Below are positions 23,987 to 27,500 of a stretch of 64,000 nt of DNA, piece after piece. Origin of the DNA: Dictyostelium discoideum (Eukaryota); assembly GCA_000004695.1 (NCBI GenBank), contig CM000151.3, forward strand, positions 1,728,001 to 1,792,000, written 5' to 3'. Position numbers and translations under genes: made by a program. Position 1 is the stretch's first letter. The number at the start of each line of letters is the position of its first letter. The notes beneath the pieces are model-generated. The model worked only from the letters and a program-made list of their open reading frames with translations. It did no database searches and was not told the origin of the DNA.

Positions 23987-24555
23987 TTATTTTTTATTAT
24001 TATTATTATTACGGTATTCCCAAACATCAGACAATTTTTGAACAAAGAAAGCTTTGGTTGCGTCCTTTCCAGAAGTTTTGATTCCAAATTTCGAAGCAAT
24101 TTGTTTTAATTCGGCCAAACTCATTTTATCATAATCGGGTTTAGGTTCAATATTTGATGTAGTATTACTTACTCTGGAAGTGGTTTGTTGTGGTTGTTGT
24201 TGTTGTGGGGATTGTTGTTGAGATGATGAAGTTATGGTTGGAATTCTTATACTCAAACCATTTGGACTTGTGGCATTTCTATTATTGTTAATGACATTGG
24301 ATTTGTTATTATCATTATTATTATTATTATTATTGGTGGATGTTATTAAATCATCAGTTGATGAGGATAATGGTTTAGGTCTATAATTAGAATATTGTTT
24401 TTGAGATGGTGAAATATCATTTTGAGCATTGAAATTTGTTGCCGATGTTAATATTGTTGAAACTGTATTGAAAGAGGTGTTGCTACTATTGTTTGTGTTG
24501 TTATTAAGTATTATTATTATTAGTATTATTAGTATTATTATTGTTATTGTTGTTG
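23987..24555 (-). CDS. Probable C-terminal continuation of the preceding gene in a different frame. It ends in a SAP/helix-turn-helix-like motif.
   Basis: Immediately 3' of the big ORF's stop, the -1 frame stays open for about 190 codons. Composition is coding-like. There is no ATG until near the end. The frame ends ...PDYDKMSLAELKQIASKFGIKTSGKDATKAFFVQKLSDVWEY, which is SAP-like. The frame change lies inside an (AAT/ATA)n tract at about 24535-24560. No GT...AG intron can explain it. Confidence 0.4.
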
Positions 24556-24558
24556 TTA

Positions 24559-27500
24559 TTATTGGTTATTATTATCTTGAGTTCTAGTTGGTAAATTATA
24601 ATCATCATAGTCATCATCATGATTTCCAATATTTTCAAATCCATTATAATCATCATCATCATCGACATTAAAGTGAAAACTATCATTTACTCTATTATTA
24701 TTATTATCATTTTGAGAAAGGTTAATTTCAAAACTTATATCTTCATCTCTTTTTCTTTCATTTTCTCTTTCTCTTTCACGTTCTTTTTCTTTTTCTTTTT
24801 CCTTTTCTCTTTCCCTTTCAATCTCTCTTTCAATTTCTTTTTCACGTTCTCTCTTTTTTTCTTTTTCTTTTTCTTTTTTCTTTTCTTCACGTTCTTTTTG
24901 TTCTTTTTCTTTCCTATCATTTTCTTTTTGATCATTTTCTTTTTTCTTTTCTTTATTTTTTAATTTTCTTCTTTTCTCTTCTCTTATCCTTTTATTAGAT
25001 GCTTTTTGATAACGATGTTTTTCTTTACTATAATCATCACTAATGAACTCACTTTCACTATTACCATAATCGCTACCATTATCACTATCATTATCATTAT
25101 CACTACCACCACCACTACTATTACTACTTTCACTACTTTCTGTATAATCATTATATGTTCGCTTCTTTAACTTTGGGGAAATTGATTTTTGATTATGGTG
25201 ATTATGGTGATTATGATGATGATGATGATATTTATTTGGAGTTTGATGATATTGATTTTTTGGGGTGGTATGATAATAATAAGGGTGTTGTTGTTGTTGT
25301 TGTTGTTTATCAGGTGATATTGGTATTTGAAATTGTGTTAAAATTGGAATACTAGTTGATTTTAATTTATGATCATTGGTATTGATATCATTATCATCAT
25401 TATTTAGTAATATTACAGAAGTATATTTTATATTATATTGATTTTTCAATTGTTGAATTGCCAAATCCTTTTCAATTGTAAATCTACCAACATTACTATA
25501 ATATTCATTCTCCAATTCTTTAATACCCTTTAAAATTCTATCTCTTTCATCATTTACAATCTTTGAGAATTTATTTGATATTCTATTAATTTCAAGCAAA
25601 AATTGTTTCATATCATTACTATTACTATTATTATTTAAATCAATAATTGATACATTATTTTCAATATTAATATTTTCATTATTAATATTAATATTATTAT
25701 TATTATTATTATTATTATTATTATTATTATTATTATTATTATTATTATTATTTATTGTTTCATTTATTGTTACATCATTAACATTTTGTTGTTTTTGTTG
25801 GTTTCTTGGTGAATCTTCTTTTTCCTTTTTTTGTTGTAATTGCTGTTGTTGTTGTTGTTGTTGTTGTTGTTGTTGTTGTTGTTGTTGTTGTTGTTGTTGT
25901 TGTTGTTGTTGTTGTTGTTGTTGTTGTTGTTGTTGTTGTTGTTGTTGTTGTTGTTGTTGTAATTGTTGTTGTTGTTGTTGTAATTGTTGTTGTTTTTGTT
26001 GTTGTTGTAATAATTGTTCCTCTTTTTGTTGTATTCTTTGTTGTTGTTGCTCAGTTTGTTGAGAACTTAAATAATAAAGATCTTTATTATCTTCTTCCCT
26101 ATATCTTGATATATCCCAAAGGGATGATTTTACGGGTGTATGCTTTTTAGAGAGTTTACTCTCATAGAATTTAGGTGTTGGTGATATTTCAAATCTATTG
26201 TTATTATTATTATTATTATTATTATTATTATTATTATTATTATTATTATTATTATTATTATTATTATTATTATTATTATTATTATTATTATTATTATTAT
26301 TATTATTATTATTATTATTAATATCATTATTTTTATTATTAAAAGAACTAAGTGAAGCTGTAGAACCAGTATTATCTAATGATGTGTTTATTGTTTTTGG
26401 AGTAGTAGATGTTGATGATGTCGATGTTGTTGTTGTTGTTGTAGTTGTAAAAGGGAATATAATATCAGCAATTTTTGAATTTCTTGTTTGTTCAGAGTTT
26501 AGTTGAGGTTGTTTTGGTATTTTAAAACCTGCCAAATCTAAAGGTGTTGATGAAATTTGTGAATTGTTTGATGAAGGAGATGGAGGAATGCTATCATTAT
26601 TGTTATTATTATTATTATTATTATTAATATTTTGACTATAGTTATTGTTATTATTATAATTATCACCATTATTATCAGATTGATTCATTGATTCCGATAA
26701 TGCTAATGCTATATTTAATTGTTCTTGATATTCATTATTATCAGTATCATTATCCATATCACTATTACTATTATTTTTTAAATCATCAGAAAAATCTTTA
26801 TCATTTGGTATCATTATTTTCTTTGACCTTTTTGTAGTACCTTTCTTTTTCTTTAAATCCAATACTGATTCATGATGAAAGAAATTTGAGGTTGTTGCAC
26901 CATTCTTTGTTGTAGTCGATCTTTTCTTTTTTGGTTTACTTGATTTATCATTATTATTATTATTATTATTATCTATATTTGGTGAATCATTATTATTTGT
27001 TGTAGTTCCTGCTGCTGCTGTTGTTGTAGTAGTTGTAGTTGTGTTAGTGGATGTATTGTTATTATTATTTGAATAAAGTGCTATTAATTCATTAGTTGGT
27101 ATTTTATTTTTCTTTGCACAATTTTTAACATGTAGATTTCTAGATTCATCAATCATTTTAGATAAATCTTTTGAACAGATTAAACAAGTTTCAGAGTTTT
27201 CTTTTGAACGACGACATTTTTCAATATGTTCTTCTTGTTTTTTTTTTGTTAATTTCGTTAAATCTTTATTACAAATTGTACAGGTATTGGATTTAATTGT
27301 ACAATTATTGGTCGTATTATTTAATTCTCTTTCGGCAGCTTCCATACATTCATTTATATGAATTTCTTTTTCTTTAGTTGTTAATGATATTATAGACATA
27401 TTACAAACACCACATTTTGAAATGAAGATTGGTTTAGCTTTTGATTGTGACCCACTTGAACTAGCAGTAGTAGCAGCAGTGGTAGTAGTAGTGTTGTTTT

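Follow-up and report, generated by a model that had tools for sequence, protein, structure and literature searches.

Two extra bases in one copy of the genome account for an apparent frameshift in a Dictyostelium discoideum gene for a protein with CCHC fingers and a C-terminal SAP domain

The apparent frameshift that divides a large minus-strand gene of Dictyostelium discoideum in the window analyzed here (the whole stretch of 64,000 nucleotides) consists of two extra bases, which are unique to this copy of the genome. What looks like a frameshift arose in this sequence copy, as an artefact or at the very most as a private lesion; in the species the gene is one ordinary ORF, and in the sister species it also appears as one reading frame, with one intron. 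The two extra bases are very probably sequencing, base-calling or assembly errors in an old sequence of the Sanger type, most likely the AX4 reference. Exact look-ups of ORFs of the window gave D. discoideum proteins, some of them shared with AX4 (XP_645310.1) and others with a newer assembly that has ACTFIT_ locus tags.

The ORF list of the window contains an ATG-initiated minus-strand ORF of 1237 codons (28272..24559), the end of which reads AAT AAC CAA TAA, with the stop codon at 24561-24559. A second minus-strand frame is open from 24565 to 23990, i.e., over 192 sense codons, and its stop codon is located at 23989-23987; the sole Met of this frame lies 45 codons ahead of the end, and the terminus is ...PDYDKMSLAELKQIASKFGIKTSGKDATKAFFVQKLSDVWEYRNNNNNKK, followed by the stop. 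With the local base composition, a run of 193 codons without a stop would arise by chance with a probability of about 3e-7. The G+C content of the downstream open frame is 28% versus 14% in the window bin 22001-24000, represented mostly by intergenic DNA 3' of the gene; across the whole window it is about 22%. Composition and stop-free length agree with an earlier note on this DNA, in which the stretch past the large ORF was described as open in the -1 frame and coding-like.

Asn-rich tracts are typical of Dictyostelium discoideum, and the break lies in such a tract. Read by eye, its first part is GAT AAT AAT AAC C AAT AAT AAC AAC AAC AAT AAC AAT AAT AAT ACT AAT, and it continues as AAT ACT AAT AAT AAT AAT ACT T AAT AAC AAC ACA..., so that the Asn-rich reading needs one C and, 58 nt on, one T to be skipped. 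Two +1 shifts are thus present, not one -1 shift, namely, AAC[C]AAT (24565-24564) and ACT[T]AAT (24507-24506). The stretch between both shifts comprises 19 AAT/AAC/ACT codons for Asn and Thr, in the third frame of the window, while a single -1 shift would give the odd peptide IITTTITIIILIILIIIIL across the tract. The shift inside an AAT tract proposed in the earlier note was found, but its description as a single -1 event does not hold, since two separate extra bases are involved. The parts of the gene around the break are as follows.

24559..28272, minus strand: first 1237 codons of the gene, closed by a premature TAA (24561-24559) that comes from the first extra base; the same as in GCA_054883475.1 save for the extra C.
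24564..24565, minus strand: CC doublet with one C extra, the first +1 shift; the extra base is missing in three of three other D. discoideum assemblies, and its removal is needed for the ORF.
24507..24563, minus strand: 19 Asn/Thr codons, in the third frame here and in frame in other strains (GCA_054883475.1 translation NNNNNNNNNNTNNTNNNNT).
24506..24507, minus strand: TT doublet with one T extra, the second +1 shift, identified by assembly comparison.
23987..24505, minus strand: C-terminal 172 codons and stop, in the third reading frame of the window; identified by strain substitutions and by indels, all of which are multiples of three.

The locus was reached in the assembly GCA_054883475.1 through neighbouring single-exon genes, and two more D. 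discoideum loci and the D. purpureum locus were reached by a homologue search with the adjacent L51_S25_CI-B8 protein. One gene of 1426 residues is called at this place in GCA_054883475.1 over exactly 4281 nt and is therefore intron-less; its translation passes ...TRTQDNNNNNNNNNNNNNTNNTNNNNTNNNTNNSSNTS... directly into the SAP terminus. In the pairwise DNA alignment of the gene, only the doubled C (24565-24564) and the doubled T (24507-24506) distinguish the window from this assembly, and in a four-way alignment all other 4284 gene positions are the same in both. Deletion of one base per site gives an ORF of 1427 codons (1428 with the stop), the translation of which is the same as that of the GCA_054883475.1 gene.

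The two further assemblies also contain the gene without interruption, as a 1372-aa gene in GCA_054859355.1 and a 1380-codon ORF in GCA_054859385.1. Each of them differs from the window at about 200 sites of the four-way alignment. Both have a single frame from MMSSPSS to VWEYRNNNNKK and the stop codon, the extra C and the extra T are both missing, and every indel in the gene relative to the window is a multiple of three. In the region 3' of the second shift, the ratio of synonymous to non-synonymous changes is 8 to 1 in GCA_054859385.1 and 6 to 3 in GCA_054859355.1; this synonymous excess therefore indicates that the frame is translated and under constraint. The comparison assemblies are recent, and the three independent assemblies and D. 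purpureum agree on a continuous frame. The approximately 570 nt downstream, earlier assigned to the large ORF, do belong to it, being joined to it in a single frame in the other assemblies. Neither the 1236-aa product nor the 89-aa downstream ORF, into which the gene is split in the window, was found by look-ups in the assemblies, and no paper describing the new D. discoideum assemblies was found in the literature search.

Comparison of the window region 24559-28272 with the locus sequences L004 and L005 showed that natural alleles vary in many in-frame repeat lengths, including differences of 87 nt in poly-Asn, about 90 nt in poly-Gln, and 27 or 21 nt in CAA/CAG near the C-terminus. By its sequence the gene appears to be a showcase of coding microsatellite polymorphism. 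The annotated model of GCA_054859385.1 (L004, 2344..8591) comprises 1396 aa over 6248 nt, yet an uninterrupted ORF of 1380 codons is already closed at 6483; splicing in this model seems to bypass the natural stop and to add AT-rich DNA located downstream.

The syntenic orthologue of D. purpureum comprises 1120 aa, has one intron and adjoins the same neighbour gene. The three fingers and the SAP end are encoded in one reading frame, with the terminus KPDYEKMTLAELKHIAGKIGIKTSGKDANKIFFVQKLSQICNIKIITD followed by the stop. The intron (about 4600-4673 of the D. purpureum locus L006) sits inside the first CCHC finger and is absent from D. discoideum. Only four blocks are common to both species: the fingers, aa 695-736, aa 887-980 and the SAP domain. 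No orthologue was found at the syntenic loci of T. lacteum, C. fasciculata and P. violaceum, synteny being informative for D. purpureum only.

Comparison of 34 kb of the window with GCA_054883475.1 revealed three classes of differences: those in AT-rich non-coding DNA, intergenic or intronic; two in-frame changes of repeat length; and three single extra window bases (24565, 24507 and 40005), each of which splits an ORF. No coding substitutions between the window and GCA_054883475.1 were found across the 34 kb. The low-quality AT-rich non-coding blocks are represented by N's at 34646-35038 and by dense A/T mismatches to GCA_054883475.1 at 21000-21450 and 34370-35800, the latter within an AT-rich block at 34300-35800. 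The base at 40005 is an extra G in a (CAAAAT)n Gln/Asn repeat of a second split gene, at 38680-42133 on the plus strand, in which the ORFs 38680..40077 and 39905..42133 overlap; removal of one G gives an ORF of 1150 aa, as in GCA_054883475.1. We infer that the extra bases arose as errors rather than as mutations private to the sequenced clone, because ORF-breaking single-base insertions occur without coding substitutions and beside low-quality sequence, and real divergence would bring substitutions first.

Similar to the Sanger-era single-base indel errors that split genes, an isolated extra base lies in low-complexity coding DNA and its deletion restores the ORF, independent assemblies are without the extra base, and N's and low-quality intergenic blocks co-occur. 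Unlike such artefacts, two errors 58 nt apart here mimic a single -1 shift, with a third-frame stretch between them. The extra bases sit in doublets and not in long homopolymers, which is a less typical error context.

According to the reading as errors, the locus would be one intron-less gene of 1427 codons, encoding a long, low-complexity protein of the nuclear-scaffold type, in which three CCHC UBZ-like fingers lie around residue 300 and a SAP domain lies at the very C-terminus. Two bases, 58 nt apart within an imperfect AAT/AAC/ACT tract, would have been spuriously doubled; the first doubling (C to CC) would create the TAA stop, and both doublings together would shift the frame by +2. No ribosomal frameshift, transcriptional slippage or intron would be at work, and the product in the cell is almost certainly the full-length protein.

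Less probably, a truncated allele without the SAP domain really exists in the common laboratory strain. Both extra bases would then be real and private to the sequenced laboratory clone, forming a young truncation allele or a nascent pseudogene, and the protein of the strain would end after 1237 aa, 190 residues short and without its SAP domain. Both bases are present in the sequence as given, and microsatellite-like tracts are prone to indels; nevertheless, such an allele is improbable, since the 4.3-kb gene is otherwise the same as in GCA_054883475.1, coding substitutions are missing over 34 kb, and two independent 1-nt insertions 58 nt apart together with the one at 40005, with no substitutions, do not form a mutational spectrum. 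The N's and junk blocks, moreover, reveal an uneven sequence quality of the window, and the downstream frame is still perfectly open.

Of the two sources of the break left open in the earlier note, an indel in the microsatellite-like tract was supported, while a genuine frameshift or slippage site was not, the break being missing in three assemblies and D. purpureum. Programmed ribosomal frameshifting or transcriptional slippage in the AAT tract, which would join the frames, could account for a downstream frame that is open, coding-like and conserved, but the three other D. discoideum assemblies and D. purpureum carry the continuous ORF without any shift, two separate +1 events would be required, and a P-site tRNA cannot re-pair in the +1 frame at AAC-C-AAT or ACT-T-AAT. 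Neither an X XXY YYZ heptamer for a single -1 event nor a long A/T homopolymer at either site was seen in the sequence. This explanation was rejected, failing both on conservation in relatives and on the slippery-site mechanism, and its probability is negligible.

Introns of D. discoideum are short and AT-rich, and the D. purpureum orthologue has one elsewhere in the gene; an unconventional intron that takes out the stop and restores the frame is nonetheless extremely improbable here and was rejected as a spliceosomal intron, with no GT...AG boundaries in a compatible phase, the coding strand from about 24650 to 24490 containing GT only in AATAGTAGC and no usable donor, the candidate GTAAAT at about 24690 not matching in phase the AG acceptors at about 24487 and, if used, removing conserved coding sequence, and other strains translating straight through the region. 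The earlier statement that no canonical intron fits is in agreement with this.

Logan contigs of about 2.1 kb (SRR28564541, SRR26869267, SRR28564543 and SRR26869266) contain the ricin-B-lectin gene at window 1714-3786, with short flanks only. They look like D. discoideum transcript assemblies, and these runs could give read-level evidence for the junction.

A SAP domain and a set of putative fingers were recognized in the protein restored by removal of the extra bases.

24014..24136, minus strand: SAP domain (DYDKMSLAELKQIASKFGIKTSGKDATKAFFVQKLSDVWEY); Pfam PF02037, 28.1 bits versus a gathering score of 23.9, E=1.5e-6.
27118..27414, minus strand: three CCHC fingers (aa 287-309, 331-353 and 363-385) with the UBZ-like spacing C-x2-C-x14-H-x3-C; pattern search.

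The Pfam match above the gathering score bears out the SAP-like C-terminus that had been suspected from the letters of the sequence. The C-terminus of D. purpureum scores the same for SAP PF02037 (28.1 bits, above the gathering score of 23.9), and the domain is 73% identical between the two species. The AF2 model of the SAP region contains two helices (28-37 and 49-69) with a pLDDT of about 90; the best PDB matches of this model in Foldseek were the SAP domain of 3'hExo, the LEM domain of emerin and the C-terminal domain of MANF, all with E>1. The protein stops 19 residues past the SAP domain. When the last 70 aa were used as the query of an exhaustive HMMER search, the matches were limited to generic proteins with repeats of SAP/HeH-like modules, and no recognizable SLX4 was among them. 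One protein from this search, P0037, comprises 246 aa and has two modules MPDYS..EELNQLISRYGMKKS.SR.FMIQKLEEIW fused to a HHH_8 domain of the Pol-beta/MUS81 type; the SAP-like and HhH types of module that partner each other in PDB 7BU5 are thus found on one chain.

The finger region is conserved in the D. purpureum orthologue, with 58% identity over 100 aa. Searches with the fingers gave no Pfam match and no PDB sequence match, and the AF2 model of the region, with a pLDDT of 52, was too uncertain for a fold search. The putative UBZ-type identity of the fingers is suggested by the cysteine and histidine pattern only. The first 1237 residues contain no significant Pfam match. A further motif, EYQEQLNIALALSESM, resembles a UIM on visual inspection and is also conserved in D. 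purpureum; it has no Pfam support. Searches of a large protein collection with the C-terminal 166 aa and the finger region found no relative and also missed the annotated D. purpureum orthologue, and exact look-ups of the 1237-aa and 1426-aa products gave no match in this collection, which evidently is without such low-complexity proteins, so that these negative results carry no information on the annotation of the reference. A metagenome scan with a SAP-coding 41-mer gave no match.

RAD18 and FAN1 are DNA-repair proteins that combine a UBZ4 finger with a SAP domain. The present protein shares with them a CCHC finger of the ubiquitin-binding type together with a SAP domain, and it differs from them in that neither the RING of RAD18 nor the VRR-nuclease of FAN1 was found by Pfam in either protein piece. 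Classic UBZ4 fingers have a spacer of about 11 residues. With SLX4/FANCP (BTBD12), the protein has in common its length, its mostly disordered character, CCHC fingers of UBZ4-like pattern in the N-terminal part and a SAP domain close to the C-terminus; it differs in that it has three fingers with a measured spacer of 14 residues and is without a detected BTB domain or Slx4 CCD (PF09494).

The second-best PDB sequence match of the C-terminus was 7BU5 chain B (phmmer, E=1.5, non-significant), with 14 identities in 48 columns, and the alignment takes in the I-x-P-x-P-x-Y-x-x-M segment upstream of the SAP domain. This chain is the SAP domain of human SLX4 (residues 1558-1606), bound to the N-terminal HhH of MUS81 (PMC13171456). 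A four-sequence profile of the C-terminus had no match in PDB. The domain order of SLX4 is UBZ-MLR-BTB-SAP-CCD (PMC12804970). No BTB domain was detected by Pfam at E<=1 in the 1237-aa part and the C-terminal part, and no Slx4 CCD (PF09494) at E<=10 in the C-termini of D. discoideum and D. purpureum, in which there is no room for this domain past the SAP. No paper on a Dictyostelium SLX4 was found in the literature search. Of the domain set that the earlier note compared with SLX4-type DNA-repair scaffolds, the SAP domain has its Pfam match and the fingers have a pattern match only; for BTB and CCD there is no Pfam match, and the SLX4 assignment is tentative.

Two defining features of SLX4, the BTB domain and the SLX1-binding CCD, were sought and not found, and therefore the protein was not filed as SLX4. 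The likeness to SLX4 is one of architecture only, and the 7BU5 match is a lead, not a test. The protein may work like an SLX4-type scaffold, with ubiquitin bound via the fingers and partners docked via the SAP domain. More tentatively, and with considerable doubt, the gene might be a minimal dictyostelid counterpart of SLX4, with three UBZ-type fingers and a C-terminal SAP of the MUS81-binding type, without BTB or CCD; if this is true, the split in this sequence copy could have hidden it.

The frameshift itself is without biological weight, because it is gone in every other copy of the gene. The value of the result lies in curation, as a 1427-codon gene has been divided in such a way that its product ends at 1237 aa and the SAP-coding tail is orphaned. 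The analysis thereby provides a corrected model for the split gene, marks a second split gene (38680-42133) as one to be corrected, and adds a candidate repair scaffold of the UBZ/SAP type. If the DNA-repair genes of Dictyostelium were inventoried from this sequence, a scaffold protein of this type would be overlooked or given the wrong size, and if the protein is a partner of Mus81 or XPF of the SLX4 type, it is the corrected model that would be the one to use.
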